Origin: Amoebophrya sp. A120
Taxonomy: Eukaryota; Protista; Dinoflagellata
Direction: 5' to 3'
NCBI GenBank assembly: GCA_905178155.1
Contig: CAJINV010000001.1
Location: forward strand, 11,639,832 to 11,703,831
Length of the DNA stretch: 64,000 nucleotides
Below the pieces are notes generated by a model. It was not told where the DNA came from and ran no database searches. It saw only the letters and a list, made by a program, of their open reading frames with translations. This document shows, piece after piece, positions 23,613-47,169 of the stretch. The translations under genes and the position numbers were made by a program. How positions within the stretch are numbered: the first letter of the stretch is position 1; each line of letters opens with the position of its first letter.

Positions 23613-25721
23613 TTAGAACCGCCAGATCTTCACCACCCGATCCTTACTTCCCGAACAGGCCTTTGCTCCGTCCTGCGCCCAGTCCACCGCGTAGACTTCG
23701 TCTGCGTGCCCCGGGAGGTCTTTCAGTAACTTTTTCTTGTTGATGTCCCACACTTTCATGGTCGAGTCGCTGGACCCGGAGAGCAACAGGCGCGAGTCCG
23801 CGGACCAGGAAATCTGAAACACCTTTCCCACGTGTCCACGCATTGTGTGCGCGAACCGACCCGTTCTTCCATCCCACAAGCGAATACTTCGATCGAAGCC
23901 CGCACTCGCGATCCACCGCCCGTCTGGGGAAAAGAGTGCCTGGTTGACGAGCTGCTGGTGGCCGGTCAGTCGTTTCTTCTCAAAAGTCGGGTCCAGCGGC
24001 TTCCAGAGGAACATCGTGAAGTCATCGCTGCCGGAAAGCAACCGCTCCCCGCCGGCGACTTGCAACGCCTCCTGATATCGGGCCAGAGCGAGCGTAAACC
24101 GTTGCGGGTTGTTTTCCTCGCAGGCGCTTCGATCGACGTTGGCATTGAGACTAGACTTCGACGCCGCTGCTTGCTTTCCATTTTTCTTGTTTTTGCCGTT
24201 TTTTGCTGCGCCAGCTGTCTTTGCGTTTTTCTGGTTCTTTGTCGCGATGGTCTCTTTCTTCGCTTCCGGAACGGTGGTCGCTGCTGAGGAACTTGGCGAG
24301 GACGCACCAGCTTCGGTCTGCGCTACAGCTTCCTCCTTCTGTTCGACTGCTGCAGTAGTTTGGGCTACCTCCGGGAGTGGTTTGTTCGCACGGTGTTTTT
24401 CCTTCAACTGTGCAATCTTCTTTGGCTCGTAATGACCCGTCCGCAAAATGTAGTCCAAGTTCAGCGCCAGGGAGTTGATCCAGTGGGCGTGGCCCTTCAA
24501 CGTCTTCAAGCAGGATCCGGTGGACGCGCACCACATTTTGATCAACCGATCGCGGCCGGCGGTGTACAGAACACCCCCGGTGTTGCTTCGCTCGCCCGAC
24601 CACCGAATTTGCATGACCGCGGCGGTGTGGCCTCCGAGTGTCAGAACGCAGTTTCCCGTGGTTACATCCCAGATTCGGGCGTCACTGTCTTTGCTCGTCG
24701 AGGCCAGCAGCGGTCGCGTCGGTGAGGTCTTGTTCGCCGGAACGCAGTGCAGTGGCTGCCAGACAAGCGAAGTCACCGGCTCGCGGTGACCGGTCAAGGT
24801 CGCTTTTCTCGCTCCCGTGTACGGGCACCAAACGAGAATCTTCTTATCCATACCCGCGGACGCCAGAAACGCGCCGTCGGGGCTCCACTCGCAACTTAGG
24901 ACGTGGTGCGTGTGGCCTGTGGTGTGATGTGTGCATGCGAGATGAATATTCAGCGCTTTTTAAATTGAATTATGGCCTGCAGGCACGGGCAGCCTGCATA
25001 TGTATGACGAAAAGAACAGTAACAAACCATCACAACATAACAACTCTAGGCGAAAAATGAGAAAAGTTGTACCTTTGAAAACGTGCACACACACTTCTGT
25101 GTTCATGTCCCACAGCCGCAACGTGGTGTCGCCCGACCCCGTCGCCAATAGCGTGCAATCCGGCGAGAACCGCGAACACAACACAGCTTCAGAGTGTCCT
25201 TCCATACTACTGGAACACCTGGTGACTGGCCTCACCTTAAAAATCGCCAGTGGGTAAAAGGTGAGCAGAGCGACCTTTTCCTGCGTGAAATTGTGCACGG
25301 TCAGCTTTTCGATAGCGTCCGCCAGCGTGGCTTTCTCACCCTCCAATGGGACCACGACCGATCTGTCGTCTCCCCGGTTCGCTCCCATTTCAAAGCTGTA
25401 CTGCTCAGGTTCCTCATTCTCTAAAACTTGATTCAGCAACTGATTCAAATCCGCCGTGTTCGCGGTGACCGCAATGTCCAATTCGGGGCCTTGCGGATTC
25501 AACTCCGCGTCGCGAAATTGCAGGATCAGTCGCTGCTGGTTCGCACCACTTGAAGCCATACTTGTCGTGGTCTGCTCGACGCGTCGCTCCTTGCTCGGCG
25601 CGGACGCGGTATTCATCTGGGGTGCATTGTTCTCGGCGGGCCGCTTCAGAGAAGCCTGGGCGTCGACTGCAGGAGCTGCCTGCATCGTCGCTGTCGTGGT
25701 CGCTTCTTGTGCTGCTGTCAT
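23613..25721 (-). CDS. NLE1: Notchless / Rsa4 ribosome-assembly WD40 protein, ~650 aa, 2 exons
   Basis: Exons 25721-25073 and 24916-23613. NLE domain (LNQLLNQVLENEEPEQYSF...FYPLAIFKVRPVTRCSSSMEGHSEAVL) plus WD40 repeats ending LPGHADEVYAVDW...DRVVKIW. Confidence 0.93.
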
Positions 25722-26517: not shown

Positions 26518-29500
26518 TCAAGTTTTGATTTTGCAGAGCGGGTCCGTCGATGCCAGTGTGACCTCAGCTTGCTCTGCAACGCAGAATTCGCTTATTGTCC
26601 CTGCTCGTGGCGCCTTGATTTCTATCGTCGCCTTGTCGCTTTCAATCTCGGCAATCAGTTCGTTCGCTTCTACTTGGTCCCCAGGTTTTTTGACAAAGGT
26701 TACGTAGAGATTGTCACCGTCGAGTGGTGCATTTACCACGATTGTTTCGGAAGCTGCGTTGGCGCTGCTCGTCGTGCTTGCTGCTGCTTCTGCTTTTGCG
26801 CTTGCAGGAGCAGCGGACGACAAGTCAGTACCAGTACCAGACCCCGTCGTCGACGTCGTCTGTACTTCGCAGTCTCCGCTACCAGCGCCAAACCTCCAAG
26901 AACTTTTCCTTTTCGCGTCCCCCACGTCTCCTGCGGTGATTGCTCCGATTCGCTCCAATGCGGTCACAACGTCCTCCGCCTGAAGCAGGCAGTCGCCGAC
27001 GCCGTAGGGGATGTAGACACTCGGGATTGTGCATTCGGAAAAAACGAGGTTCCGACTGTACGGCAGCTTGCGCTTCAAATCGGTCACGACCGGGCCAAGT
27101 AACCCGGCGTTTGGATTCCCGTCGACGACGAGAACGTCGATAGGCTGCTCGTTCTGCAGTTCGGCGCGCAGGTAGTCAACCAGAGCGTTTGGCGTTCGGT
27201 TGTATGAGAGGATGAAGAAATCGCAGTTGACCTGAAAATGATGAATGTTGTACGGAGTGGGAGAAAACGATGTGATACGACATTTCGGCACACATATGTA
27301 AAATCCGAAACTTGAAAGTACTTGTCTTTCACTCGGTCTACTAGTCTAGCATACACTTACATCAACAAAGTTCGCTTTAGTACCTGCTTCTCCTCGACAA
27401 CCTTGGCAGCCATCTTCGCTTCCGGGCCCCATGCGAGAACCACAAGTTTTCGCTTGCTCTTCGGCTTTTCAGCAGTTGATGCGAAGGAAAACTTGACTTG
27501 CAACACATCGTTCAGCCCTATCACGGTTTCCGGCGCCTCCAGGGGGAACTTCCCGTGCAAAAGTTGAAACGCTGCGGTGGGGACCACGCAAATGACCATG
27601 CGGCCCAAGTCGTGCAGTCGCACCATTTCCGGCATGCTGGCCCGAAACGCGTTCATATCGAGCGGCAAAGCCATCACGGTGTTCGCATCGGACGCGAAAG
27701 AGGAGTACTCCGGCGTGTTGTGGTGCTCGCCGACGCGCGCGAGCCAGTGCGCGCGGGTGGATTTTGACCCGTCGGCGTTTTCGATTTCCTGGACATCAAA
27801 CGACGCAATCGAGCCGCCATCAAACATGTAGATCACGTTTCCGTGGGTGCCGGAATCGCAGTACCGGTACGCTGCGTACTTCATGTGGTCTCGGGCGTGC
27901 TCGTTGAAAATTGTGTGCGGTCCCTTGACGAAAACCAGATTGTTTTCCGGGAGAACCGACCGCATCGCGGCGCCCACCTGCATCACCTGCGACTCGTGCG
28001 GGAGAAAGTTCACAAATTTGTCCGTGTGTCTATCCTCGATCAGATTCAGCTCTCCGTACACCCCGCCCCGGCTGTCGGCGTTTTTGTCCTTTTTGTGGTT
28101 CTCCTGGTGGACGTAGCGGCAAGCGCGGTTTTTTTTGTCGGCCTTGTCCATCTCCTGGTTGATGGTGCGCGCAAAAATGTCTGACCCCATCCCGGCGAAC
28201 TCGGCGTGGTTTTTGCTTGTCAAGTACTCCGAAGAGAGGGCGTGAATTTTGCCTTGCTCAGCTCCAAAAACGGTGAGCGCCCCCGGCTGCGACAGCTCCA
28301 CGGCCTCCGCACGGGTGAGCACGTTCGTTCCGCAGATCGCCGCTTCGATCTCGTTTCCAATGGATACGTTCGCGGCTTCCAGGGCTTTTGCGAGGTCTGC
28401 GCCCGTTGCAGTTGGCTCGGAAATGTCCGCGAGCTGGGACAGCAAACACTCCTTCAGCTTGTCAAACTGATCCAAGACGACGGCGTCCGGTGCGGGATTC
28501 TGGTCGTTTGCATGCCCCCCTGGCCGAAAGGGAAAGCGGCATATCACGTAGGTCGGCCGGCCAGTCCGCAGAACCTGGTCCACGGCATTCTGCATCGTGG
28601 CAATGCCTCCCTGCACATCCGGCGCCCAGGAAACGAATCCCTTGTCAATGACACTTTCGTAGCTTGCGAAGCGTTCTTGTAATTTTGCCAAGCCGAAATC
28701 GTCTTCGTTCTCCGTGGCAGCCGGGTGCAAGCGGCTGCTGATGCTCGAATTGTTGGCGTTGACGACGAAAATCAAGGGCATCGGGAACCCGCGCTCGCGC
28801 GCTTCCACGAGATGCGCCACGGCGTGCATTGCGCCATCGGTGTAGAACCCCGTGTCGCCGCTTGCAATGACGGTTACGGGCGGCTGTTTTCCCTCCAGAC
28901 CCATGCAAAACGCCCGAGCGGTTTGCATCTCCAAGTCTCTGCCGAGATCGGTGCTGCCGGTGCTGACGTGCGAGTCGCACGGATAGAATTTTCGTGTCAT
29001 GCCGCTGAAAATGTCCGGATCCTCGGTCCCACTCATGCCTGGAAACGGAACTCGACTGCCCGCGTGAAACTGCATGAAGTGTGCCTTGGCGATGAGGCGA
29101 TGCGCCGTGTCGTTCTTGTAGCCCAGCCGGTACAGCTCTTCCAGCATCAGCGGTGAGCGATAGTAGGTGACAAACCGCAGCGCATCCTGCACGTTTTTTG
29201 TTCCCCGTTTTTCCATGCAGTACTCCGCGAGGCCGGCCGCCAGGTGCGTGTAAATGACGCTCGGGAACAGGCTAGCGCCATTTGCCGCTTTTGCGAAATA
29301 CTTGTGCACGTGCTTGGGGAAGACCAGGTTCGCGAGAAACGAATCCAGTAACGCGGCCCGCGAAGAGGAGGATATGCCCAATTCTGCATTGCTGTTCGTG
29401 CCCCCTGCTTGTAGCGTTGCACTACTAGAAGCCGAACTTGCAACGCTCTGGGCGAGCATCGACTTCCGGCGCGAAACTTCATCCTGCAAAGACGACGCCG

Positions 29501-29930
29501 TGCCGAGAGCAGTCAAATCCGACAGTAGCTCATCGTACACAGCCGTGTACAGCCCGTGGCACTTTCGAATCTGTTTGATGAACTCTTTCTGCGACGAAGC
29601 CTGCTTTGATTCGTACGACCGCAATGGATTTCGGCTGTCATAAAGCGCGGAATGCCAGTCATCTGCAGGAGAATCACGGTGGGCGGAGGAAGAGGATGCT
29701 CTTACCGCACCACGACCGTTAGAACTTGATGACGAGGAACTTGCACTTGCTTCGGGCGAACCTTTCCTTGAAGAAGCCGCTGCAGCAGCGGACGACCAGG
29801 CCCGGTCGTGCACACTGATGAACCCCTTGGAACGGATTATCGCCTGCTCTTTGCACCCATACCTGGGTACGAATTTTCTCCATACCCGAGGACAGGCCAT
29901 TACGTCGTGCCTCCCAGTGATGATTTGCAT
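26518..29930 (-). CDS. Single-chain 2-oxoacid dehydrogenase E1alpha-E1beta fusion with C-terminal lipoyl domain, ~1086 aa, 2 exons, probably mitochondrial
   Basis: Exons 29930-27384 and 27231-26518 (CAG|GTACTA...TTCAG|GTC, in phase). E1alpha: TYYRS, ThDP motif GDTG...LIFVVNANNSSIS (28749-28859) and FRPGGHANDQ loop. E1beta: RGGVYG...FVNFLPHESQVMQVGAAM, GEHHNTPE and VVLAWG. An Ala/Ser/Thr linker precedes the lipoyl domain KKPGDQVEANELIAEIESDKATIEIKAPRAGTI (Lys at 26632-26634). The Arg/Ser-rich N-terminus resembles a presequence. Confidence 0.8.
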
Positions 29931-30259
29931 GCCGCGTTACAGCTGATCTCCCTGCACCATCAACTACATGAAGCCGATGGCGCTCTATCTCCTTTATCTC
30001 CGGGGATCTCGAACTCTTCGGCCGAATCATTAACCAAAACCTATGCTACTCACGCACTAATTTCTTCGGGCGGTATCGAGTGCGAGTGGTAGTACGCAGG
30101 ACAGTCCCGGCGGAAAATTGCGTTGAAGACTCTATCCACCTCCCGGCTCGACTGATGAATCGCTCCCCTCCTCACCTCCTCCTCGTAACACCAAAGTTAC
30201 TTGCCCTCAATCTGCGTCTGCCCTATGTATCACATGCTTTTCCGTCTTGATGTGTGCCC

Positions 30260-31110
30260 GCAGAGCAAATGAACCAATCGGAACAACTCTGAAGCGAATG
30301 GGCTCGCTTCGAGAAAAAAAATGAGGATGAGCTCTCTTGCAATTCGTTCATCGGCAAACCGCCTGTCTGGGCCTGCCGTGGCCCCAATCTGCCGGCGCGA
30401 AGACCACGGGTCAGCAGCTGCGACCACATACACGCGCCAAACTTGCTGCCGACCTGCCACCGGCCTGGCAGTGCGCGAAGGGAAGTAAGTCGCCCGGGAG
30501 GCCCCGGTGGAGCCCATTGGCTTCTGGCCTGCCAGGGAAATGCGCCCAAGCGGCACGGGCCCGCGCCCGCTGTACGTTCTTGCGGGCCGATGCGACCAGG
30601 GAGGGGTCTGCGCCTCTGGCCCCCATGATTCAACAGAGCCGGCGGGGGGCACTCATGCAAGCGCGCCGGCAGGCACTCGCGCCGCCCCCAACTTTTTCCG
30701 CGGGGCGGGTCGCCATTTGGTTTGTCGTTTGATGCTTTTAATTTTGCACACTACGACGACGATAATTCAATTTGGTATGATATCCATGCCGGTGGACTTC
30801 CCACTTTGTGGCTGTGGTTCCGGCAATCTGGCGGACCCGCTGCCCGCTCGTCGACTCCTGCCCGTACCGCAAGGCAGCCAACGAACGCGGCCGGCCAAAG
30901 GTTCCAGAGGCTGCGCCACTGGTGCGCCCGCGCAGCCATTCGACGCAGAGGAGAATGAAACACACACTCAGGGCGGCGATGCCCATGGCCATACCGGCCA
31001 CGAGCTTCCGTAGTTGGCAGCGGCCTCCGCGCCCGGATCGACGGCAAAAAGGCCGCGCTCCGCCATCTTGATCTCTCAAAACATGGAGCGGCCATCTTCT
31101 TCCATTTCTA
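30260..31110. repeat. GC-rich dispersed repeat / possible non-autonomous mobile element (copy B)
   Basis: Shares with copy A, in the same order and orientation: aagggaagtaag (30478 vs 22182), ggaggcc.cgg...ccattggct (~30497 vs ~22278), gtggttcc (30814 vs 23265) and aatctggcgga (30825 vs 23279). Confidence 0.6.
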
Positions 31111-31753
31111 CCTGGTACACACAAACAGCAAACAGCGCACGGCAACATCCACACTCTCACTTAAATTTTTCTCTCGACAAGAACTACACAAGCAGCACAC
31201 GCCTCGCTCCATTAGCACAATTTTGGGATTTGCCTGTGCTCCCTCCCTACTCCAAATGAAGCTCCTCCGCCACCTATCAGAATCAGCGTCATCTACCTTG
31301 AAACATCATCAACACGAAGAGTAGCCGCAGTGGCAGTAGCGAGCAACGCTACATATTCTGGCATGGCAATTCCAGTTTCTTTTTCCGGCTTCATCAATCT
31401 ACCCGTATTTCCGGACACTTGTCCAAAAAAAAGTTCGCAATCGCGAGCGCGTCTTGAAAAAATCTTATGATCAACTTCTCTTTTTACACTGTATTCATAT
31501 TTGGTTACACAAACATTAGAATCGAAGTCTACACGGTAAGAAATCCAATCGCAGTCTTCTTTCGACTTGTAGCTTTATTACAGCTACAACGAAGTAATCT
31601 TTCATCTTTACAAGCATCTTTATCGGGCGGACGCGGATACTGCACAGAAACGCATTTCATCAAAATGTTCGTTCAAGGAACGCGAAACCAAAAACTACTT
31701 GAGGTCCTCGGTTGCCACTTGTTTTAACTGAGTACTTTTTTCTATCACCGACT

Positions 31754-33602
31754 TTAGTTTGCAAAAGCAGGGATTCCGGTAATGGCCCGCCCGAGGACCA
31801 GTGCGTGAATGTCCTGGGTGCCCTCGTAGGTATTCACAGCCTCCAAATTCAATACGTGTGTCATGATTCCGTACTCGTCAACGATTCCGTTTCCGCCCAA
31901 CATGTCTCGGCATTCCCGAGCAATGTGCAGTGCCTGAAAATGGTTCGACTCAAAAGGCAATCGCGACAAAGCTACTTTTCTCACAATATCAAATGCAAGA
32001 GTTGAGAAGATCGGAAAGAGGAAAAACCATCGACCGAAAAGAATCAATCACCTACCAAACAACCGTATTTACATCAACTCAATACCTTCGTGCAGCTGTT
32101 TCGCTTGGCCATGGAGATGAGGTTGCTGTGGAGCTGGTGGTCCTCTTTCATCCTGGTGATCCGCGCTACCAACTGCCTTCCCAACACGATGTCTGTCCAG
32201 GCGTCCGCAAGCTTCTTCTGCAGAATCTGGTTGCTCGCCAACGGTCGCTTGAACATGTGCCGGTCCAACAAATACCGTCTCGCGATGTCCACGCACTCTT
32301 CCGCCGCACCCAACGCGCCCCAGGCGATGCCCAGTCGCGCGGAGTTCAAACAGGTAAACGGCCCCTTCATACCGACGATGTCCAGCATGTTCCCCGCCGG
32401 CACTCTCGCGTTGTCCATCATGATCATGCCCGTTGGGGAGGCACGGAGGGAAAATTTGCCGTCGATCTTCGGCGTCTGCAGCGTCTGTTCACTGTTGTCC
32501 GCACGCTCGATGATGAACCCTCTCACTTTCCCGTGGTGTTCTGGCACGTCTGGATCGTGCACCTTCGCCCACACCATGAACACGTCCGCGATCGGAGAAT
32601 TTGTGATCCAGGTCTTGCTGCCGCTCAGCAACCAGTTGTCCCCGTCCTTCTTCGCAGTTGTCGTCATGCCCGCGGGATCCGAGCCGTGGTTGGGTTCGCT
32701 CAGCCCAAAGGACCCCACAATCTCGCCGGCGGCGAGCTGCGGGAGCAGCCGGTCCTTCAGCGCCTCACTGCCGAAAAGATGGATCGGCCACATCACCTGA
32801 TTTAGAATTAGACAGGACAGTTTTTGGTAATGATAGAGTAAGAGAGCACCTTCGCTTCTGCGAGTTGCTTGACCATTCGCATTTATTTCACATTTCTTGA
32901 ATATTGTAGTCAGCAGTATGTTGTTGAAAAACGTTTCATGCCAAATGCCAAGTCCTATACCAAGCTCGACTGCACACTGAGTGTTGACCGGTAGCCCGAG
33001 TCGCACTTCTCGACTTCTGTGGCGACGAGGCCGTAACTTGTCACCGAAGCGCCGGCGCAGCCGTACTTTTCCGGCAGCACCAGGCCTAACAGCCCAGCTT
33101 TTCCCATCTCCCGGATGATGCCCCGCGTATCACCTTCCTCTCGTCGAAAGTGCTCGCGCAACCGCGGCCGTAGCTCCGTGTCAGTAAACTTCCTGGCTGC
33201 GTCGCGGATGAGTATTTCGCTCTCCGTGAAGGTGTTCTCCAAGAGTAACGGGTCCTGCCAGTGCTCCTCTGGCACCCATTCGAAAGGCTCACTGATAATC
33301 TTCTTCGTGTTCACAGAGGAGGAACTGACTGCGGCGGATGCAGCGGGCGGAGCAGTTGTGTGCATCGCTGGTGGTGCATGTTGCTGCTCCTGCTGCTTCA
33401 CACTGGCGGCCGCGGAGCCGAAACTTCTTCCCGCCGTAGACGGTGTTGGCGTGGAGCTGAAACTGCGTGTTGCCGTACTACCGGTGGAAGTTGTATACTG
33501 GCAATTTTTCCCACCGAAATTGACACTTGACGCGAGCCGGCTCTGCCGGAAAAGACGCGACGCTATGGGTCGCATGGACGAACTAGCAGATGACATCGAC
33601 AT
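31754..33602 (-). CDS. GCDH: Glutaryl-CoA dehydrogenase, mitochondrial, ~510 aa, 3 exons
   Basis: Exons 33602-32961, 32796-32086 and 31933-31754. Motifs [58 protein letters not shown]-like [11 protein letters not shown] and [20 protein letters not shown] are diagnostic of GCDH. A Ser/Arg-rich presequence is present. Confidence 0.95.
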
Positions 33603-34267
33603 CGTATTTCTCGATTCAACTTCAAACACAAACAGACATACACATAGATTATTTTGTCTCCAGAGTTGTCGTAGAAGAACTTAAACCTTGACCTTCAAAA
33701 CGAGGCTGTGTGAGTTGAAGAATTGGTACTTAGATTCTTTTCATGATCACGGGTACTTAAAAACATTCAGGGCAGGAATGCAGGAGGGTAGCCAATTTAA
33801 CCTGTAATATCAAATATGGCGCGGCAGTAGTTTTTGCAATATGTCGAAAAATATCGACAAAGTTGTCTGACGTCAAATCTCCCCTCGTTCTCAACACTCA
33901 CTCTGGAACATGCTTCGCTCCTTCCTGTTCCTTCTTTTTCATGAATCTGTCTCTCAGAGCACGCGCAAGGGCAAGCAAGAAAAAACTATAGTGGACCACT
34001 ACCGATTTCTCTTCGAAAAATTCTCATCTCAGCGAAGACCTCATACTTGCACAGAATCACAATCTGGAAGCGGAAACACCCGGGCCACTAAGTTAGTGTC
34101 GCAAAAATGTCAGTGAAGGTCAACTTTTCTTGCTTGTGTACTGCGAAACAGACTTTGCATTTCTAAGACTTGCACCAACTATGCCGCATCCGGCCAAAAC
34201 CTGTGAGTGCGTGGATCCAGTCCACGAAGATGAAGAACATTCTGTTGTACAAAACGATTTCTTTACG

Positions 34268-37018: not shown

Positions 37019-40000
37019 CTACAAGTAGTACGTCCTTTTGCGAGGCTGCTGCCACTGAAGCATGCGCAGCTGCTCGAGTTCCGCTCGGGTCATTTGCTTG
37101 GCAGACTGACTGTCTTCGTAAGCCAGCTGCTTCCCGTGACCATCCGAGCCGTCCGGGTGCAGTTCGTCGATGGCCAGATGCTGCACGTCAAGACCGCACC
37201 GCAAAACGAGGAATCGCACGGCAAACGCCGCCGTCAGCGTAAAATCCTGCTTGTCCGTCAAAATGGACGACGAGGTCTTGCTCGAAGCGGTCGCCGCCGG
37301 CGTCGTTTTTACGTTGGTTGACGAAACCAGATCCTGAATATCTCTGGCAGCTTCTTCCAATTTCTCCAGAGTCCAGAAGCTCGGCTCGTTTTCCCCCGTC
37401 CAGTAGTGTGTAAAGTTGGGGTCCGGAACGGGAGAGCGCCCGCTTCTGGTCTCCCGTTCGGCCCACTGCTTCCAGTGCCCTTCCGAATCGTCTTCCGGAC
37501 TCAAGAGCTGACTCACAAGCAAGCGGTGGGGATCTTGGTGTGCCTCGCTGTCGGTTTGCGACCACATGTAATCCTCGTAGCGCGGCTGCACGGGCGAGAA
37601 GCGCGAATCCAGGTAGAGTATGCGTTCCCCGGGTGTCTGGAACTGCTTCTGGGGATAGCGTGGAAGAAAATGGGTCTCCTCCACGTCCCCGTCGTGAAGC
37701 GAACGTGTCAATACCAACGGCAGCAGCTGTTTGCTCTCGCTCTTCTCTTCCCAGAATGATCTCTCGTCCGAATGACGCCCTTCGGGGCTCGATGTTGGTT
37801 CTTCAAAACTGGTAGCGTCCACCGGCTCTGAAAGTAACTCCAGAAGCAGGACAACCACCCGCAAAAGCAACGCCACCGGAACTTTGCCATCTTGACGCAC
37901 TGTTCTCGGAAGTAGACGCCACAGCAGTGCCAAATTGCTTTCGTCAACAGATCCGTTCGAGGCCGCGTCATCACCATCAAGGTATCGCTGGATCCCGATG
38001 GTGAGAAGCGCCATTTTCCCGCCAACTTGCACGATTTTCTTGCCAACGAATTGCATCAGGGAAAAGAAGTTTGCGAGTCGAATGCGCTCGGCCTCTCGCT
38101 TTTCCTTCATGAGGCGCGCAACGTGCACGGCGAGGAAAAGCTCGTCGTCCCCTAGCGTCGCTTGCTTCGCGCGGGGCTTCGTTTCTTCTTCTGCTCCAGC
38201 GCTGGCAGCACATTTTTTCTTGTTAGCTCCCGCGGATTTGCGTAACTCTTTCAACATAACACCCAAACGCTGGTCTCCACGACCAAACTCTTCCTCTAGT
38301 ACCTTGCAGTCCGGATTGTACCGGAAGTAGAGGGAGGAACACTCTTCATTTTCGGACCCGTAAGAAAACGTGAGGTCCCTCCTGCCACTATCGAGCCCTG
38401 CAAGACGACTGTGCATGCCGTCTCTTTGTTCACTCTGCAGGATCAGCTGCCAGAAGAAGATGAAAAGCGGCTCTCCCTCTCGCGAGTACCTGCCCCCCAA
38501 CCCGAGGCCACCGTGCACGAAGGAGTAATCGGTCCACAGGCAGTACGGGCGAGTAGAAGCCGTTCCTTCACTGCTTTTCGCGACGGGTGCGAAGGAGAGC
38601 ATTCCGATCTGTACGGTCTTCGCGAGATAGTCTGCAATCCACTCAAGTTCAGACTGGATCTGTTTGCCCTGTGCAGGCGACAGCCCCATGAGTGCGGCGT
38701 CCTTTTTCAGCAACTGTTCGCAAACGACCTCCTCGTACAAGTAGGTGTCCAGAACGCGCTCGTACCACACGCGATCCCGCCAGCCCTTCCGATACCTCAT
38801 GGGCATGTACTCTGTTACATCGCGCCACGGCGGATAGTGCTCTTTGTCCTCGTCGTCCGTTGAATCTTCTGACTGCCCGTCAGCTTCGTCGGTATCTTCC
38901 GCGGCCGAGTAAACTTCTTCTGCGTCGGAATCGTCGGACACAAACCCGGGCGACATCAACCGAGGCCGCCTTGCTGGAGGCGCAGCTTCCGCGTCCTCTG
39001 TGTGGGTTTTTGTTGGATCCTCCCGCTCTCCGGTGGCAGTGTTTGCTCCTTCGCCCATCGGCACCCCCCGTTGTCTGCGAACATCCGCTGCAGCGTCGCG
39101 CTTTTCGCGCCGCTTCATTTTTCTCAACTTTGTTTTTTTCTTTTTCTGCTCCGCCGCCTCTGCCTTTGCCTCTGGTGATTTGGGCGGTCGCGCGACGTCT
39201 CGGGCCCTTTCTAAGTCGAACAACATCTCTGCCTGTTCAAACCGCCTCTGCCGCAACAGGAAGCCCAGAGAAGAAACCTTTCTGCGCCTCGCCGCTGCAT
39301 ACGCGTCCAAATACGATGTGGCCGCCAGTTTCTTCTTCTTGCTTTCCTCTCCCCCGAGTGTCCTCCACAGTTCTTCTGCTTTCTTCTTCTGCGCACGAGG
39401 CGTCCCGTTCAGTACTCCGGCACAATCCGGGCCACAGTCACGCTCGCAATCTATGTCGTACTTGTGTATCAGGTTCTGGATATCACGGCTGATTTTCCTG
39501 CCGACCAGGCCCTCATGCTTCTGCGCGCTGTACGAGATCGACCTCGATTTCAATATCCTGGTCGGGAAATCCACCAGGTTCACGATTAGAGATCCAAAGT
39601 GGTCGTGTCCTTTGTCGGCAGAAGAAGCACCGGGTCCCGTAGAACTGGCAGATGTCGACTTGCTATCGTCCAGGGTCAAATCCGCCAGTTGCGCGATAGT
39701 TTCTCGTGCGAAAACCTTTTTGCGAAAAGCAGCGTCCAGGTTTTGCAACGGCCGTCCAATGTAGTGGGAGACGCTTTTTTCGATTCGTTTCCGATCCCAG
39801 CCTCGTGCGGTCATTTCAGCGAAAGAGAGCAGAGGATCTTCCGCATCGCCGCCCGTCGCGTGTGGTTTTGAGCTGCTCGCTGACGCGTCGTCAAGTTTCC
39901 GCTTTTTCGCGGGGGGGCTTGAAGGCGAGGCACTCGGATCGGGTGGTGCTGTCTCGTGTGTTTGTTCTCGTGGCAAGAGTGTACTACTGCTGCTCTTCTC

Positions 40001-43000
40001 TGTACTACGAGAGGACTGAACTTCCTGCACGAGCGAGGCGGCGAGCTCGCTTTCATCTAGGAGAATCAAACACACCAGACGCTGAAAGCCATACTCCGTT
40101 GTAGTTGCTCCCATATCAAAAGACTGCCAGTCGTGAGCTATCCGGGCAGCGGACGGGTAGCCGGCGCATCGCAGCGCTCGTCTTCGAAGCAAAATTTGCG
40201 ACACCGCCCTTAAATCCTTCAGAAGGGTGGCGCTCGCGGCCGGCAGACCTGCGAGCGCCTCGGCCTCAATGTCTTGAAAACGCTGCTTTGCACTGAGGTA
40301 GATCTGGCGGCATCTTGCTTCGTACTGGGCCTTTTGCAACTCTTGGAGATCCTTCTGGTTCTCTGCATTCTGGGCTTTCTTAGCACGTTCTTGCTCTTCC
40401 ATCTGCAGGGTTCTTCGGCGTTGCTCCTGCAGAAGTCTCCCGCCCGCACCGGTCTTGCCAATAAGCAAGTCGGCCACTTGATCACGGCAACGCGGCTGCC
40501 CCAAGACCGCCAGCAGAACCAGGAAGCGGTAGATTGCCACTACCGGCGTGTCAGTGAACACTGCGAGAGTGTGCCCTGCGAATTTGTTGACTTTCTTCAA
40601 TAACGCTAGCTCCTCAGTGAACTCGTCGTCCTTTGCTTGCTCCATGTGGTCGCGGATCTCCCGAACAAGCATTTCCGACAACACACCGCCGCACTCTTTC
40701 AGGGCCTTCGAGAAAGTCGAACTCCGCTGCTCGACGAGCAGTCGCAGCAGCTTCCCGTTCTGCGGCGCTGGATTGGTCAGCAGCACTAACAAAAAGCTGC
40801 AGAAGCTGTAGGCCTGCAAAGTCCATTTACTTTCGCCGGCCTCCTGGAAAATGTCGCCCACCTGGTGCAAGATCTTCGCCGCATCAATAACTTGGAGGAG
40901 GTCAGTCGCTGGCTTCCTCTGGAGCATCATGCTCCACAAGTTAAATTCCTTCGGGAAAACGGCGCCCAATCCCGCCGGCTGGGCCTTTGCAAGATGGTAG
41001 CTCCACAGGAACAATGGATTCTCTTGCGGCCATGACATCGCATATTGTCCGGCGGCTTGTTGCAGCTCCTCCCTAACTTTCTCCGCGTTGGATAGGCAAG
41101 ACAAGAGCCTGTTCCACCGGCGCAACGACTCCGTCTGCCTGAAGGGCGGGTGACTAGAGGAGCTCGATGACAACTCGTGGACCCGCGAGACCACCTCGAT
41201 CAAAGTGTCAGGCATCGTCTCGGGTATGTTTGGAATTTTCTGATCGGTCGAGGTCTCGTCGATGTAGGAAACCCACCAAGGGACAAGCTGTTCTCCGCCA
41301 CTGACCGCCTGCTTCTTATTTCGATCTCCGTCTCTCAAAGTCGACGCCACTGGCTTCCCAAGGGCTAACGCGTAGTAATCAAGCGCCAGATCCGCACGCA
41401 CGACGCTTTCCTTCGACTTTCGTGGCATGACCAACGTCTGCAGTGGCGTCATTCCGGTCGAGCTCAACACAGCACCGCAATAAGTCACGACCTTTCCCCT
41501 GCGCTCCAGAATCGCGCTCGGGTCCAGTATGGCTTCGGTGGATGGCGCGGAGTGAAGCGCAACAAAACTCTCTCGCAATCGATCTGTTGTCACGTATTTT
41601 CCGCCGGCGTTCTGGTCCTTTCTGGCCCAGTGCGTCCACCAATGCAGGACCGTCTGGCGGTTGAAATAGCTCGCGAACCACAGCGGACTGGCACCGCAGC
41701 ACATTTCTCTTGCGCTGTCTGCAGCCAGACAGCACTTGTTGTTGTTCTGCGTGCTAGCCTTTGCACATGAAGCGCCAGCACTGCAACTTCTGATCGTGTC
41801 CTCGCCTTCTTCCAGAAGAACTTGCAGTGTCGAAACCGCGCCGCAGGCCGCTGCGAGGGAAACCAAGGCCTCGCCCAGTGTCGTTCCCGGAGTGACAGGA
41901 GCATTTCCACCCTCCACCTTGCTGCACAGGCTCACAGCCGGGAACGGCTGTAGCCTCTGCGTCTCCCTGCGAGACCTCCAAATGCCAGACACCAGAAGTT
42001 GCAGGGCGAAGGCGTCCGACAGCGAACCGGGCTTGAGCGGTTCGCGGCACACGGGGCACTTCTTGTTGCCCGGCCCGCTCCCGGACTCGTTCTTCTGCTC
42101 GCGTGGCAAGTAGAAAAAAGCGAGGGTCCTGCTGCGAATGGGACGCGCGGGAAGCGCATCGTCCAGGTAATCTATGTCGTAAAATTCAAACTCGTTTTCC
42201 ACCGGCGCGTCAGGAGGTTGTACTACAACCGCAGCCGCCTCGTCCTGTCCAAGAACTGCTTCGGCAACCACTGCGGGGCCCGCGCCAGCATCTTCTACTT
42301 GCATATCATTGTTCGCAGCCTCAACGTTGAGAGCGGCTGGAGCAGCTTCTTGCCCCTGTGCCTCGTTTTCGAGGGCCTGTTGCTGCTCGTCAGCGCCGTC
42401 ATCCTCTCCATAGTCACCGAGGCCGTCTTTCCCGATCCGCTTCAAAGTTACGGTTTTTTTCTTCGTCCCGTCGGCTTCTACCGTCGTGATTTGGTTTGTC
42501 ACCTCCCAGACGATTCCGTTTTTGTCCAGCGCGCAAGGTTGCACTAACTCTTGAAACGCACAGGCTCGGCAAAAGCGATGCCCACACAGCGCTCGGTATT
42601 GGTTTTTCTCGGTCAACGTCTCCAAGCAAATGGGGCAGCAATGCTCTTCCGTCTCAGAATTGGTTCCCTTGTTGTGGTCAGCCATTCTCGCTTGGCGCTC
42701 GGAATGCTCCCCGCCGTCCTCAACTTCCTCCTCGTAAAAGTTTTTCGGAATGATTTCGGTGCTTAGGTCTATCCACTTCTCTTGTATCGCCCAGCGAAAG
42801 AAGGCATGGTGGTCGATTGTGAGCAGGAGGAACAGTCTCGGCAAATCCTCGAACATGATACCCGCTCGCGTCATCTTGAACTGTTTCACGATTTCAGTTG
42901 TCGGTTGGGCGAAAGATGTTGAGCTGCGGGACTTTTTCTTCATCTGGGCGGGAGTAGTTCGACAATTTTTTGTTCTTTTCGGGGCTGGACCAGCATCACT

Positions 43001-46000
43001 TTGCTGCTCGTTTTCCTCGTCCTGTACCGATGTCACAGCCGCCAGAGCCAGACTTTGCTGCAAATACAATCGGAACAGGTCTGCCACTGCTTCCTTCATC
43101 GGCTTCACACGATAAATCTTTGCGACGTCGGGCGCGACAAAATTTGCTTTATGCCACGCAAGCACCTCCCTGTACCGGCGGTCCGCGTTTTCTACCGGAT
43201 TCATTTTGCGCATCGTCACCAGGCTGAATTTACTCTCATCCTCCGAGTCCGAACAAAAGTCGTCTTCTCCGCTGGAGTCGCCCGCCGCAATCACGAACCC
43301 GTCATAGGGGAACTTGCGAAGTTTCCGTGGGCGCCAGCGACGAGGCACAAGCAGCAGGTTCCGGGAAATGGTCTCCAGCAGTTTGAGACGCTCACGCTCC
43401 ATTTCGGCGAGAAGCGATGTTTTGAATTTTTCAGACGTATTTTCTGTTACTGGCACCTTGACGCCGCGAACCGTGATAGTTCCTTCTGTTGTCTTGCTAG
43501 CCAAGAAAATGGCCCTCTTGTCAACCTTCTCATGCAGCTGCACGCCCTCCGGATGCAACAGGCGCGCCAAGCGCCTGCGCACCCCGAAGGCGGCACGACT
43601 GCGCAACCCCGACATGTGCAAGTCCACTCTCTCGAAGTCAAGCGACGGGTAAACCATTGATTCGAAAACTGCAACCGTTCTGTACCCGAAGGTACTATCG
43701 CGAATCTTAGAAACTATCGAATGGTACACGCCTCGGCGCTTCTCTTCCTCCTTGTAGCAGCGCAGGAAGGCGGACCAGACGGTGGTTGGGGTCGGCGTGT
43801 CAAACAAGTCCTGCAAGGCGGCCGTACTATCCCTGATATCCTCTGTCACTCGCTGCAACGCTGTGTGGAGCAACTCACGCCGCGCGGCGTCGTGACCGTC
43901 ACCGTCTTTCGCGTGTAGATCTTTCAATAAAGCCTGCAACCGAGCCTCGGCTGTCTTGAACTTTTTCGCCGTGCCCCTGCCTCTGCTCGCAGCTGCGGCC
44001 TTCGCCTCCCTTCGCTGTACCGCAGCGCTGACATCGCTGAGCTTTCGCCCAGTTGCAGTTACCATCTCCGAGTCGATACTGTGGTTTGTCACCTTCACCA
44101 GGTCGGGCAAGCTTTTACACGTATAATTGTTGTTGAGCTGTTCAAGTGAAAAATTTTCGTATGAACCGATCGCTGACGGACTTGCCGAGACGATTTTTGC
44201 TTGCTTTTTGCGCATCTTAAGCATCTTCTCTTCTGCAGCGAGACCCTTGGCCTGGAAGGAAGTTTTGCCCTTCCACGTGCCCGAGTAGAAAAGTTCCTCG
44301 AAAAACTTCTCATCCGATTTGCGCGCACTTGCTGCTTGCTCGGGGTTTGCCAAACCGAGCATGCCGGCAAGTTCGAAAGCGACGGTGGCAGCATTCTCGG
44401 GATGAATATCCGTCACCCCTAGAATGGCAGACTCCCCCAGGTTGATCTTGTTCCCACGGAGCTTGTTTTCCTGAAGAGAGAGAACAAGGGAGCTCCTAAT
44501 CGGCACGTCGAGCACAGGTGCTACCTTGCGTGCGAACCAGAGGAGGGCGTCTGTCGCCCCCATCGCCACAGCCTTGCTGCAGAACCTCACGACAAACTCG
44601 TTCATTAGCGCCCTCTGTCGCCCCATGAAGTCGAGTTCGCCTCCAATTTCTTCATACACGTCCTCTGGGCTCCAGCCATTCGCATGATTTGCCAGGGACA
44701 CACACCGTCGCCAAACAGAATTGTTGCAAAACCGCTTGAAGCTTTCGCTTTCCAGCCTGGAAATGGTATCTGCAAAGTCCACCTCGGCTTCATACTCGGC
44801 CGCGGCAACCAAATTTGTACTACTGGCAGGCATCGAGCGCTTCTTTGATGGCGAACCCGAACCGGGCAGCAAGAATCGAGGCACCGTCGCGATTACGGGA
44901 CCCCACCACGGCGCGCCGCCCCCGATGGCGCTAAAATAACCCTGTAACTTCGTTAAATCGTATAAACACGCGCTTGGATCGTCCTTGTTGCTGCAACAAA
45001 CCGTATTGCCAATCTGCAGGACTCGCATCAAAGGAAACACTAATCGTCGCATGCGCAAGCTCCGTCGACTTGGATCTGCAAGGAGATCGTATAGAGCGCG
45101 AAGCAGGGGCTCGGTGTGAATCGTGTGCTGCTCCTGTGCTTTGCTTCCGGTTGTTTCCACCTCTACTCCGCTCGCAAAACGTTTTTGCAGCTCCTGCGCT
45201 TTTTTTCGGTCTTCTTCAGTAGTCCTATCGCGTTCTAAAGTTACCCATCGGTTTTTTTCCGCTTGTTTACTCGGGTGCGAAGACGAGGTACCAGTCGCGG
45301 TTTCAGCTCTCCAGGTGGTTTCCGCGCCGAGTTTGATGTAGTGAAGCATTCTCGTACATTTGACCATTTCGTAACTCGTGAGAATGTCCCGCACGATGGT
45401 TCGCAATCCGTGTCGGATCGCGTAACTCAGAGCCGTTTCCCCGTCGAACGAGTTTTCGGCCGCGAAAAGCACGCAAGCGAGGTGGGTGATGAGAACTCTA
45501 CCCTCCAGTGTTGTCATGTTTCTCTCGGGTGGGAGTTCGATATGTTCGCAATGGTAACCGAGCAGGTCGTGAGCAAAGAATTCAACAATCTGGGTTTTCT
45601 CAGCCACAACCCCGACGGACAGCAGTGTGTAGTCGTAGAAATCATCGCGATCCTGGGCCGATATCTTTTTTCCGTACACGCAATCCGATAGAAGAGACGT
45701 ACTACCGGTTACAGCCGCGCCGTACGCCAGCAACCGCCACGACCAAGGATCCACGGCACCTTCCAAAACCCGATCCACTTTTTTCGTTGTTTTCGCTCTG
45801 TCCCCAGGATAATCCGTGTTGTTTCCGGCGCTGCTGACATCTCCTCCAGCGTTGTTTTCCGCTGCAACTGCGGGCGCCCCTGCTTGTGGCGGTGCCTCCT
45901 GATGGTGTGCCACTGGTGCATTACTTCCATTTGCTCCATTCGCTGCTGGCGACAACATCTCACTGTCGCCCTGTTCTATGTTTTTCGGAGAATTTTCATC

Positions 46001-46447
46001 CTCGTTCGGCTGAACTCTAGCGCCGAAGCCGAACTCTCCCGCTGTCAGAGTCGTGTGTACGATCGCAAGTTTCGCTTCAACCGCGGCCTTTCCTTCGCTC
46101 TCGTCTGGTGTAGCTTTCTTGCTGCCCGAGGAAGAAGCCGCAGCGGTATCGGCGACAACGTGTGGTGGGGGCCAGAACCCAAGAAAGGCGCCATTCTTCA
46201 AGTCGCAGCGAACGAAAAAGGTGGCAGTCGCAGTTTTTGAAGTACCAGTGGACCACTTGCAGAGCCCCAGCTCCCGCTTGGACAGGGAGGCAACGTCGCA
46301 AACGTAAAACAGCTTGTCGGCCCTCTTGCTTTCATCAGCCACGACGCGCGACGGTCCTTCTTGGTCGCTCGCTTGTTCGCCATCATCGGAAAACGCATCC
46401 CCGATGAGCAGACCCGCAGCCAGCTCCTCAACGTATGGGGCAGCCAT
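37019..46447 (-). CDS. Very large (~3,140 aa) intronless protein with ankyrin-like repeats and a split C3HC4 RING finger
   Basis: 9.4-kb uninterrupted ORF. Ankyrin-like segments DGETALSYAIRHGLRTIVRDIL, GASPLWFASYFNRQTVL and TGMTPLQ. RING CPIC...CGHRFCRAC...(167 aa)...CPVC. Confidence 0.8.
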   Translation of the reverse strand: MAAPYVEELAAGLLIGDAFSDDGEQASDQEGPSRVVADESKRADKLFYVCDVASLSKRELGLCKWSTGTSKTATATFFVRCDLKNGAFLGFWPPPHVVADTAAASSSGSKKATPDESEGKAAVEAKLAIVHTTLTAGEFGFGARVQPNEDENSPKNIEQGDSEMLSPAANGANGSNAPVAHHQEAPPQAGAPAVAAENNAGGDVSSAGNNTDYPGDRAKTTKKVDRVLEGAVDPWSWRLLAYGAAVTGSTSLLSDCVYGKKISAQDRDDFYDYTLLSVGVVAEKTQIVEFFAHDLLGYHCEHIELPPERNMTTLEGRVLITHLACVLFAAENSFDGETALSYAIRHGLRTIVRDILTSYEMVKCTRMLHYIKLGAETTWRAETATGTSSSHPSKQAEKNRWVTLERDRTTEEDRKKAQELQKRFASGVEVETTGSKAQEQHTIHTEPLLRALYDLLADPSRRSLRMRRLVFPLMRVLQIGNTVCCSNKDDPSACLYDLTKLQGYFSAIGGGAPWWGPVIATVPRFLLPGSGSPSKKRSMPASSTNLVAAAEYEAEVDFADTISRLESESFKRFCNNSVWRRCVSLANHANGWSPEDVYEEIGGELDFMGRQRALMNEFVVRFCSKAVAMGATDALLWFARKVAPVLDVPIRSSLVLSLQENKLRGNKINLGESAILGVTDIHPENAATVAFELAGMLGLANPEQAASARKSDEKFFEELFYSGTWKGKTSFQAKGLAAEEKMLKMRKKQAKIVSASPSAIGSYENFSLEQLNNNYTCKSLPDLVKVTNHSIDSEMVTATGRKLSDVSAAVQRREAKAAAASRGRGTAKKFKTAEARLQALLKDLHAKDGDGHDAARRELLHTALQRVTEDIRDSTAALQDLFDTPTPTTVWSAFLRCYKEEEKRRGVYHSIVSKIRDSTFGYRTVAVFESMVYPSLDFERVDLHMSGLRSRAAFGVRRRLARLLHPEGVQLHEKVDKRAIFLASKTTEGTITVRGVKVPVTENTSEKFKTSLLAEMERERLKLLETISRNLLLVPRRWRPRKLRKFPYDGFVIAAGDSSGEDDFCSDSEDESKFSLVTMRKMNPVENADRRYREVLAWHKANFVAPDVAKIYRVKPMKEAVADLFRLYLQQSLALAAVTSVQDEENEQQSDAGPAPKRTKNCRTTPAQMKKKSRSSTSFAQPTTEIVKQFKMTRAGIMFEDLPRLFLLLTIDHHAFFRWAIQEKWIDLSTEIIPKNFYEEEVEDGGEHSERQARMADHNKGTNSETEEHCCPICLETLTEKNQYRALCGHRFCRACAFQELVQPCALDKNGIVWEVTNQITTVEADGTKKKTVTLKRIGKDGLGDYGEDDGADEQQQALENEAQGQEAAPAALNVEAANNDMQVEDAGAGPAVVAEAVLGQDEAAAVVVQPPDAPVENEFEFYDIDYLDDALPARPIRSRTLAFFYLPREQKNESGSGPGNKKCPVCREPLKPGSLSDAFALQLLVSGIWRSRRETQRLQPFPAVSLCSKVEGGNAPVTPGTTLGEALVSLAAACGAVSTLQVLLEEGEDTIRSCSAGASCAKASTQNNNKCCLAADSAREMCCGASPLWFASYFNRQTVLHWWTHWARKDQNAGGKYVTTDRLRESFVALHSAPSTEAILDPSAILERRGKVVTYCGAVLSSTGMTPLQTLVMPRKSKESVVRADLALDYYALALGKPVASTLRDGDRNKKQAVSGGEQLVPWWVSYIDETSTDQKIPNIPETMPDTLIEVVSRVHELSSSSSSHPPFRQTESLRRWNRLLSCLSNAEKVREELQQAAGQYAMSWPQENPLFLWSYHLAKAQPAGLGAVFPKEFNLWSMMLQRKPATDLLQVIDAAKILHQVGDIFQEAGESKWTLQAYSFCSFLLVLLTNPAPQNGKLLRLLVEQRSSTFSKALKECGGVLSEMLVREIRDHMEQAKDDEFTEELALLKKVNKFAGHTLAVFTDTPVVAIYRFLVLLAVLGQPRCRDQVADLLIGKTGAGGRLLQEQRRRTLQMEEQERAKKAQNAENQKDLQELQKAQYEARCRQIYLSAKQRFQDIEAEALAGLPAASATLLKDLRAVSQILLRRRALRCAGYPSAARIAHDWQSFDMGATTTEYGFQRLVCLILLDESELAASLVQEVQSSRSTEKSSSSTLLPREQTHETAPPDPSASPSSPPAKKRKLDDASASSSKPHATGGDAEDPLLSFAEMTARGWDRKRIEKSVSHYIGRPLQNLDAAFRKKVFARETIAQLADLTLDDSKSTSASSTGPGASSADKGHDHFGSLIVNLVDFPTRILKSRSISYSAQKHEGLVGRKISRDIQNLIHKYDIDCERDCGPDCAGVLNGTPRAQKKKAEELWRTLGGEESKKKKLAATSYLDAYAAARRRKVSSLGFLLRQRRFEQAEMLFDLERARDVARPPKSPEAKAEAAEQKKKKTKLRKMKRREKRDAAADVRRQRGVPMGEGANTATGEREDPTKTHTEDAEAAPPARRPRLMSPGFVSDDSDAEEVYSAAEDTDEADGQSEDSTDDEDKEHYPPWRDVTEYMPMRYRKGWRDRVWYERVLDTYLYEEVVCEQLLKKDAALMGLSPAQGKQIQSELEWIADYLAKTVQIGMLSFAPVAKSSEGTASTRPYCLWTDYSFVHGGLGLGGRYSREGEPLFIFFWQLILQSEQRDGMHSRLAGLDSGRRDLTFSYGSENEECSSLYFRYNPDCKVLEEEFGRGDQRLGVMLKELRKSAGANKKKCAASAGAEEETKPRAKQATLGDDELFLAVHVARLMKEKREAERIRLANFFSLMQFVGKKIVQVGGKMALLTIGIQRYLDGDDAASNGSVDESNLALLWRLLPRTVRQDGKVPVALLLRVVVLLLELLSEPVDATSFEEPTSSPEGRHSDERSFWEEKSESKQLLPLVLTRSLHDGDVEETHFLPRYPQKQFQTPGERILYLDSRFSPVQPRYEDYMWSQTDSEAHQDPHRLLVSQLLSPEDDSEGHWKQWAERETRSGRSPVPDPNFTHYWTGENEPSFWTLEKLEEAARDIQDLVSSTNVKTTPAATASSKTSSSILTDKQDFTLTAAFAVRFLVLRCGLDVQHLAIDELHPDGSDGHGKQLAYEDSQSAKQMTRAELEQLRMLQWQQPRKRTYYL

Positions 46448-47169
46448 GATGTTTGCTCGGCGCTCTAAGTGTCTGCGAATCTGGTCCACGATTGATTCTA
46501 CAACGATTGTGACACCGTCATATCGTAAAAATAGGAATTTTTCCTCTGTCTCTGACCTTGTATAGCCGGTTATTGAGTGAGTAAGTAAGTATTTCCGGAG
46601 TTTCTTTCTGAAAGTTTTCTTTCTGAAAGTAGTAGAGGTATGTGAAATTCGCCACGTGTCCTGGTATGTTGGAACTTCAACTTTTCACCTTTGAGATAGT
46701 CATAATCTTTGTTGTTGTTCCGCATGAGCTTACTAGCAAGAACCTTTTTGTATTTCCACTGCAATGCTGTTGAATTGGTAGAGTGAAATAACATTGATTC
46801 CGGACAGGAGGCGCACAACCGATCGAGAAAAAAGGAGCGAAAAAATTTCTGCTCAGCGATTTGGGTTCTGACCGATTATAGCAGGGTCAACAATACTGCG
46901 CACCGATATGTGTGGAGGAAGAGCAGAACCGAATCGATTTTCGTATCTATTTAGAGAGTTACGTACATTTTCACTAGCATCCGAACACCGGCACCCGATT
47001 ATTTTGAGTAACCATTTTAGAACAGTATGTAGATTCCGATCGATTTTGTCCTCGACCAGACGGTTTTCGGCGCAATTCTTAACAAAGGATCTCAGAACCA
47101 TCACCATGCAGTCGTGCGCTTTGAAATTTTGCTCTATTTCTTCGTCCCTCTGGTCTGTATCATCTGCCA

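Follow-up and report, generated by a model that had tools for sequence, protein, structure and literature searches.

In this study, we analysed a 64,000-nucleotide stretch of DNA from the dinoflagellate Amoebophrya sp. A120 (contig CAJINV010000001.1, positions 11,639,832 to 11,703,831; hereafter the window, whose own numbering is used for all coordinates) and characterized a gene on its minus strand, at 26518..29930, that encodes a single chain of 1086 amino acids (aa) with both E1-alpha-like and E1-beta-like parts of a 2-oxoacid dehydrogenase and a C-terminal lipoyl domain. The chain belongs to a family in which an E2 acyltransferase core usually follows in the same protein, and it is a paralogue from which that core has been lost. 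We consider it reasonably probable that the window chain functions as a thiamine-dependent E1 with its own lipoyl arm, borrowing the E2 core of a paralogue.

The extent of the gene is defined by its reading frames and by transcript contigs reaching from 30058 to 26325. Exon 1 (29930-27384, 849 aa) opens with an ATG at 29930, two codons past an in-frame stop, and exon 2 (27231-26518, 237 codons) ends with the only stop of the spliced frame (26520-26518). Between them lies a GT..AG intron of 152 nucleotides (nt) in phase 0 (27232-27383), inside the C-terminal domain of E1-beta. This intron, proposed in an earlier note on the same DNA, is skipped exactly in contigs of all three RNA-like runs from one sample (X1, X2 and X4, whose RNA-like status is the tool's guess) and is covered without a skip by genomic contigs of run X6. 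One RNA-like contig crosses it, from 27918 to 26408/26325, so that the lipoyl exon and the E1 exon lie on the same transcript; the possibility that the lipoyl exon is a separate gene, which the note had named as fatal to its reading, is thereby ruled out. The transcript ends 110-190 nt past the stop, and in X1 and X4 there is no depth between it and the Notchless-like gene downstream. In the metatranscriptome X5, coverage of the gene is limited to short stretches. The intron position, the stop and the downstream gene are the same in a second strain (L005, 90% DNA identity).

The first 90 residues (29661..29930) contain 14 Arg/Lys, 6 Asp/Glu, 20 Ser and 14 Ala, and homologues bear comparable basic, Ser-rich leaders; from this composition, they are likely to be a mitochondrial presequence. 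The E1 part spans aa 185-946. Within it, an E1-alpha-like diphosphate-binding domain (aa 191-559, 28254..29360) carries the motifs YYR (256-258) and GDTG (358-361), N393, I397 and RPGGH with H473, and an E1-beta-like pyrimidine-binding domain together with the start of its C-terminal domain (aa 578-849, 27384..28199) carries E610, E646, F675 and GEHHN with H737. The remainder of the E1-beta C-terminal domain (aa 850-945, 26944..27231) is collinear with the homologues. It is followed by an Ala/Ser/Thr-rich linker (aa 946-1010, 26749..26943) and by the lipoyl domain (aa 1011-1086, 26521..26748), with the lipoyl-lysine K1049 (codon 26634-26632) in the motif ESDKA; all these features are on the minus strand. 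The last domain matches Pfam Biotin_lipoyl (PF00364, expectation value E 6.6e-12), and since its motif reads DKA and its best NCBIfam matches are E2 lipoyl regions, a biotin carrier was ruled out.

By sequence, the E1 part is highly diverged: exon 1 matched no Pfam family, no NCBIfam family and no PDB sequence at E<=1, and a profile built from ten family E1 parts likewise had no match in these searches. Its identity was revealed by structure prediction. For aa 191-849, AlphaFold gave, from 26 homologues, a model with a predicted local distance difference test (pLDDT) of 80.2 and a predicted template modelling score (pTM) of 0.83. Model residues 1-369 align with human branched-chain 2-oxoacid dehydrogenase (BCKDH) E1-alpha (1x7z_A) at Z 21.4, with a root-mean-square deviation (rmsd) of 3.7 over 306 residues, and with pyruvate dehydrogenase (PDH) E1-alpha at Z 19.4; residues 388-659, the exon 1 portion of the beta half, align with Geobacillus PDH E1-beta (1w88_H) at Z 19.1 (rmsd 2.5, 212 residues). 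The model of the full-length homologue P0019 (pLDDT 83.5) matches BCKDH E1-beta at Z 29.1 (rmsd 3.0, 311 of 329 residues) and the alpha subunit at Z 23.9; its stretch equivalent to the linker has low pLDDT, and its lipoyl and E2 parts, which lay outside the structural match list, were assigned from profile matches. The architecture drawn in the earlier note, with E1-alpha, E1-beta, a linker and a C-terminal lipoyl domain on one chain, is therefore borne out by the spliced frame, the folds and PF00364, as is its claim of strong divergence. Of the Pfam families that it expected, the lipoyl domain was matched, whereas neither E1_dh nor Transket_pyr was, in exon 1 or in any of ten family E1 parts.

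The active site of the E1 looks intact from the aligned sequences. The Geobacillus residues to which an excerpt of PMC2663715 assigns roles (Y102, D173, N202, I206 and H271 of alpha; E59, F85 and H128 of beta) correspond by sequence alignment to Y257, D359, N393, I397, H473, E646, F675 and H737 of the window chain, and these eight residues, with roles in catalysis or cofactor binding, hardly vary across the family. The segment ARVGEHHNT of the window E1-beta aligns with ARVGAQHSQ of canonical PDH beta, and the region of the R-x-GH loop aligns with BCKDH alpha in a hidden Markov model alignment. By contrast, no E2 core accompanies the gene: across six frames of the whole window, the family E2-core profile peaks at -0.3 bits, against 277 and 203 bits at control loci, in agreement with the absence of an E2 catalytic domain claimed before. 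A hidden downstream E2 exon was also rejected, given that the transcript ends past the lipoyl exon, that the next gene is Notchless-like and that the window holds no E2-core signal.

With aa 190-849 as the query, 23 proteins of 41-70% identity were recovered, homologous in the E1 part at E < 1e-99. The named homologues all come from Amoebophrya (A25 and A120), which fits the myzozoan host suggested earlier, and the others are marine metagenome or Logan records. The E2 core (PF00198) is present in 18 of the 23. Among those without it, P0017 represents a single exon, with lipoyl and E2 exons following in its gene; P0004 covers part of the AT5 orthologue; two more, P0018 and P0025, are incomplete; and the fifth, P0003, the orthologue of the window gene in A25, has a model that stops short of the lipoyl domain. 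Full-length members are 1120-1435 aa long; in them, between one and three lipoyl domains precede the E2 core. Thus, among these sequences, E1-lipoyl-E2 is the usual form of the family and the E2-less chain a derived exception. The family cores keep the catalytic His, in CHATLTG in place of DHRxxDG, and most end 12-21 aa past this motif, compared with 22-24 aa in four canonical E2s, so the tail that joins trimers into cages seems to be absent. The sources label these proteins E2 or 'unnamed', which is why their E1 was overlooked. A literature search, with most subscription journals outside its coverage, found no published description of the family or its gene ids, and in no paper did we find E1-alpha, E1-beta, lipoyl arms and an E2 core on one eukaryotic chain.

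A quick IQ-TREE analysis of 31 E1 parts, in which four rows shorter than 330 aa were excluded (among them P0037, P0059 and P0063) and P0034 and P0033 were kept, resolved three Amoebophrya clades: a (the window chain, A25 P0003 and AT5 P0151; support 99), b (A25 P0018, A120 P0007 and AT5 P0033) and c (A25 P0020 and A120 P0021). Clade a groups (support 100) with L001/P0006, P0017 and P0023, which keep the E2 core; the sister rows L001/P0006/P0023 have three lipoyl domains before it. As these relatives bear the core, the loss took place on the lineage leading to clade a; it is confined to this clade, and the window chain is a truncated paralogue. The E2-less end recurs in AT5 (P0151-P0153, ending after one lipoyl domain) and in L005. 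In the window's own DNA run (X6), the gene has short stretches in common with two further contigs, whose loose ends of 30 bases encode peptides found in the A120 paralogues b and c, indicating that both E2-bearing paralogues are present in the same genome. The earlier description of the chain as self-contained is not supported by these findings, since most of its homologues carry the E2 core in the same chain and two such paralogues share its genome. In the AT5 model g15266 (P0151), some 37 residues of the thiamine-binding motif are missing but are present in P0004 of the same cluster; this is probably a false intron in the annotation.

The family bears on a published gap in the metabolism of Amoebophrya, from which, according to two papers, PDH, BCKDH and 2-oxoglutarate dehydrogenase are absent. 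In the entries of Table S10 of PMC7789003 on these pathways, the 'E1 is missing' from PDH, and E1 is the only PDH component so reported; for the tricarboxylic acid (TCA) cycle every dehydrogenase complex is entered as missing, and BCKDH is not detected, while lipoate salvage, the conversion of thiamine to thiamine pyrophosphate and glycine cleavage are. An excerpt of PMC9478091 places a question mark at the 2-oxoglutarate step, although in the free-living stage every other TCA cycle gene is expressed, and for A120 it lists a pyruvate:flavodoxin oxidoreductase targeted to the mitochondrion; the two A120 paralogue ids are absent from the rows of its supplement that were searched. As pyruvate has another route through this oxidoreductase, the remaining gaps are 2-oxoglutarate, the branched-chain 2-oxoacids and the source of glutaryl-CoA, that is, three lipoate-dependent steps facing three paralogues without a function. 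It is likely that, between them, the three paralogues take the place of the dehydrogenases for 2-oxoglutarate, branched-chain 2-oxoacids and 2-oxoadipate, which annotation has missed, and the lineage-specific replacement role proposed earlier is in this sense right. That they replaced all three enzymes outright, as a cage-less mixed complex sharing E2 cores that completes the TCA cycle and uses an alpha/beta-type E1 on dicarboxylic 2-oxoacids, is a more speculative proposal that we regard as doubtful; the only E1s known to us to act on dicarboxylic 2-oxoacids are of the SucA/DHTKD1 type.

In the mechanism that we favour, the window chain would be imported into the mitochondrion, where its E1 parts would dimerize with active sites between the chains, as in other thiamine enzymes. 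The thiamine diphosphate-bound E1 is predicted to decarboxylate a 2-oxoacid and to load the acyl group on the chain's own K1049-lipoyl arm, which would hand it in trans to the trimeric E2 core of a paralogue to yield acyl-CoA. The arm would then be reoxidized by a separately encoded E3, perhaps common to glycine cleavage.

More remote relatives give some indication of the origin of the E1. Out of 1.84 billion representatives, an E1-only profile picked 119 proteins. Beyond the core family, these included P0041, P0044 and P0045 at E 1e-65 to 1e-79 (P0041 and P0044 with an E2 core), still farther P0103, P0112 and P0114, and, at the greatest distance, P0141, which belongs to a widespread fused E1-alpha/beta family (427 matches, in protists from Chromera to amoebae). 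A profile lacking fused-family members gave 120 fused-family proteins a median score of 32 bits (range 11-72), a set picked through P0141, the best match, which favours them, and two bacterial members 15-18 bits. Canonical alpha, beta or joined alpha and beta controls scored -1 to 17 bits (PDH alpha 3.9, PDH beta 0.3), DXS -2.6 and transketolase -3.0 bits, and SucA gave no match. With a profile of the fused family, exon 1 of the window gene did not score like a member (15.5 bits), and the bridging P0103/P0114 reached 61-70 bits. A 32-row tree agreed on the nearness of the two families (98/98), with very long branches. The fused family itself (P0141, P0154-P0272; about 770 aa) is labelled 2-oxoisovalerate dehydrogenase by the sources, and a literature search found no paper giving its substrate.

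P0041 (L010:5235-8771, G001) is a full E1-lipoyl-E2 fusion surrounded by bacterial genes; the marine alphaproteobacterial bin in which it lies encodes a PDH and a SucA of its own. With a leader that resembles a mitochondrial presequence, the fusion is a candidate for horizontal transfer or for a host-directed protein. P0044, P0045, P0103, P0112 and P0114 are orphans similar to it. A P0041-like gene occurred in 1 of 301 genomes of the order of G001, and among 401 genomes of the phylum G001 was the sole case, apart from two fused-E1 genes caught because the profile includes P0141; a broad bacterial distribution was ruled out on these counts. So was a viral origin, as none of 45 pattern matches in viral contigs was a relative.

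Hints at the substrate come from neighbouring genes. Upstream of the window gene, on the same strand, lies a glutaryl-CoA dehydrogenase gene with three exons and its own transcript (31754..33680; E 1.7e-78 to a solved glutaryl-CoA dehydrogenase), whose introns near 31933-32084 and 32796-32959 are skipped in RNA-like contigs. Glutaryl-CoA dehydrogenase consumes the product of 2-oxoadipate oxidation. The same neighbour adjoins both plasmid-borne bacterial fused-E1 members that were examined, and, of 20 fused E1 genes in 401 proteobacterial genomes, 5 have it as an adjacent gene and 8 have it no farther than 7 kb away (one of these is cut at the edge of the region). At none of these 20 loci (L016:474-6083; L022-L061) was an E2 or E3 found within 7 kb, and at 10 a malonyl-transferase-like gene lies directly downstream; the proteobacterial genes possibly represent an undescribed, E2-free 2-oxoadipate route. 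In L004, a 12-kb locus of the sister clade, no long frame was recognized, by eye only, as glutaryl-CoA dehydrogenase. The adjacency favours, in terms of sequence context, a dicarboxylic 2-oxoacid ancestry of the fused E1. If the window chain is active, 2-oxoadipate is our tentative first choice of substrate; branched-chain 2-oxoacids and 2-oxoglutarate are equally possible seconds, and pyruvate is improbable.

Several other explanations can be offered for an E1 with an arm and no core. An active chain might do without the paralogues and pass its acyl-lipoyl to a non-E2 acceptor, such as a condensing enzyme or an acyltransferase of the malonyl-transferase-like kind. The E2- and E3-free loci of the nearest proteobacterial family, half of them with a malonyl-transferase-like gene downstream, speak for this view; nevertheless, the sister rows and both paralogues keep the E2 core and no such acceptor gene occurs among 12 neighbouring reading frames scanned, and we judge it rather unlikely. 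The chain might instead be a non-catalytic or half-active partner that forms a heterodimer with a paralogue E1 or donates its arm to a mixed complex, like E3BP/protein X. Domain loss after duplication would suit such a role, and, as the active sites of thiamine enzymes lie between chains, a heterodimer is conceivable. Against it, none of the eight catalytic or cofactor residues checked, in either half, has been lost in three strains that share 57-59% overall identity, which makes a degenerate partner distinctly improbable.

The remaining two readings concern the chemistry. That the chain is a self-contained replacement of a lost mitochondrial PDH, as the earlier note implied, agrees with the alpha/beta-type fold that it has in common with PDH (Z 19.4 above), with the use of BCKDH for pyruvate by myzozoans (PMC7789003, in part) and with the expression of a mitochondrial pyruvate carrier (PMC9478091, in part). 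However, without an acyltransferase the window chain would give no acetyl-CoA, canonical PDH subunits hardly score on the family profile, and the pyruvate:flavodoxin oxidoreductase listed in A120 makes pyruvate the weakest substrate option; this reading is very unlikely. A thiamine enzyme of other chemistry (transketolase, DXS or acetoin-cleaving) with a retained lipoyl domain could be argued from Foldseek, which puts transketolases first with SucA-type enzymes interleaved, but these top matches have an rmsd of 12-13 Å. Finer alignment ranks E1-alpha and E1-beta first (rmsd 2.5-3.7, compared with 17-19 Å for DXS), DXS and transketolase score below zero on the family profile, and the E1 part is fused to lipoyl and E2 domains, leaving this the least probable of the readings considered.

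Some observations also weigh against an active E1 that borrows a paralogue's core. In place of GDG the chain has GDT, which 33 residues separate from the Asn; identity between the window chain and the solved E1s is low, at 9-15%; the residue equivalences come from sequence alignment, not from superposed coordinates, and the beta His is H737 in one alignment and one residue off in two others. The E3-binding domain (PF02817) was not detected in any family member scanned. The presence of the paralogues in the window's genome rests on 30-base loose ends, and the A25 orthologue P0003 ends before the lipoyl domain in its model, through model error or, possibly, further loss. As to the substrate, gene order is weak evidence in eukaryotes, the adjacency to glutaryl-CoA dehydrogenase was seen once, and, with a median of 32 bits and long branches, the glutaryl-CoA-associated family is only a distant relation. 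In addition, the relevant entry of Table S10 has lysine to glutaryl-CoA as not detected (PMC7789003).

The window chain differs from each of the systems to which it can be compared. It has both folds and the cofactor and catalytic residues of the E1 heterotetramers of BCKDH and PDH (1x7z/1u5b from human, 1w85/1w88 from Geobacillus), at 9-14% identity; in those enzymes, however, alpha and beta are separate chains and the lipoyl domain is on E2, whereas in the window all three are in one spliced frame, GDT replaces GDG and the E1 is invisible to Pfam. The E3-binding domain of canonical E2s was not detected in the family members scanned, and their cage-forming tail appears to be absent from most family cores. 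The fused E1-alpha/beta proteins (K11381, 2-oxoisovalerate dehydrogenase E1; Chromera, Hondaea, Diplonema) provide the same one-chain alpha-beta build, which the first Atlas matches also have, and are the nearest large family by profile and tree, but they have no lipoyl or E2 domain, keep their Pfam matches and read HYRH, GEDV and FHTH where the window family reads YYR, HQEN and GEHHN. In alphaproteobacterial PDH E1-beta (PRK11892), a lipoyl domain is also on an E1 chain; the window match (E 1.3e-7, profile positions 21-66) is restricted to that domain, which is N-terminal there, with a separate alpha subunit.

The actinobacterial OdhA/KGD proteins, two-in-one 2-oxoglutarate dehydrogenases, are the nearest analogy for parts shared within a cage-less mixed complex. 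They too join E1 and E2 activities on one chain, as is predicted for most family members, and OdhA relies on parts of a neighbouring complex, the same reliance that we propose for the window chain. The intra-chain arrangement of the E1 domains superposes at 4.4-5.4 Å over about 600-630 residues. However, OdhA has a SucA-type E1 at its C-terminus (from residue 474), after the E2o core, while the window family has the order E1-lipoyl(-E2) and an alpha/beta-type E1. OdhA, which has no lipoyl domain, is described as using those of E2p, so that the window chain, which keeps the arm and has lost the core, would be the reverse case. The actinobacterial PDH and 2-oxoglutarate dehydrogenase, as presented in an excerpt of 10.1101/2023.02.23.529587, offer a precedent both for lipoyl arms and cores common to several complexes and for a cage-less mixed complex.

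Amoebophrya is a widespread marine parasite of bloom-forming dinoflagellates, and the one-chain family names candidate genes for its published dehydrogenase gap, making this gap testable. A paralogue with an arm and without a core is also a natural test of the need for a megadalton E2 cage. More generally, gene losses reported in fast-evolving parasites can be failures of profiles.

Other features of the window were noted in passing. The Notchless-like gene downstream (23613-25720, minus strand) has an NLE domain and WD40 repeats, with an intron near 24917-25072. The region 30100-31400, between the window gene and the glutaryl-CoA dehydrogenase gene, is GC-rich and without a long frame, with low RNA-like coverage at about 30473-31206 (X2). 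Farther upstream on the minus strand (37022-46684) lies an open frame of 3221 codons, in which Pfam detects nothing but a weakly matching RING-type zinc finger.

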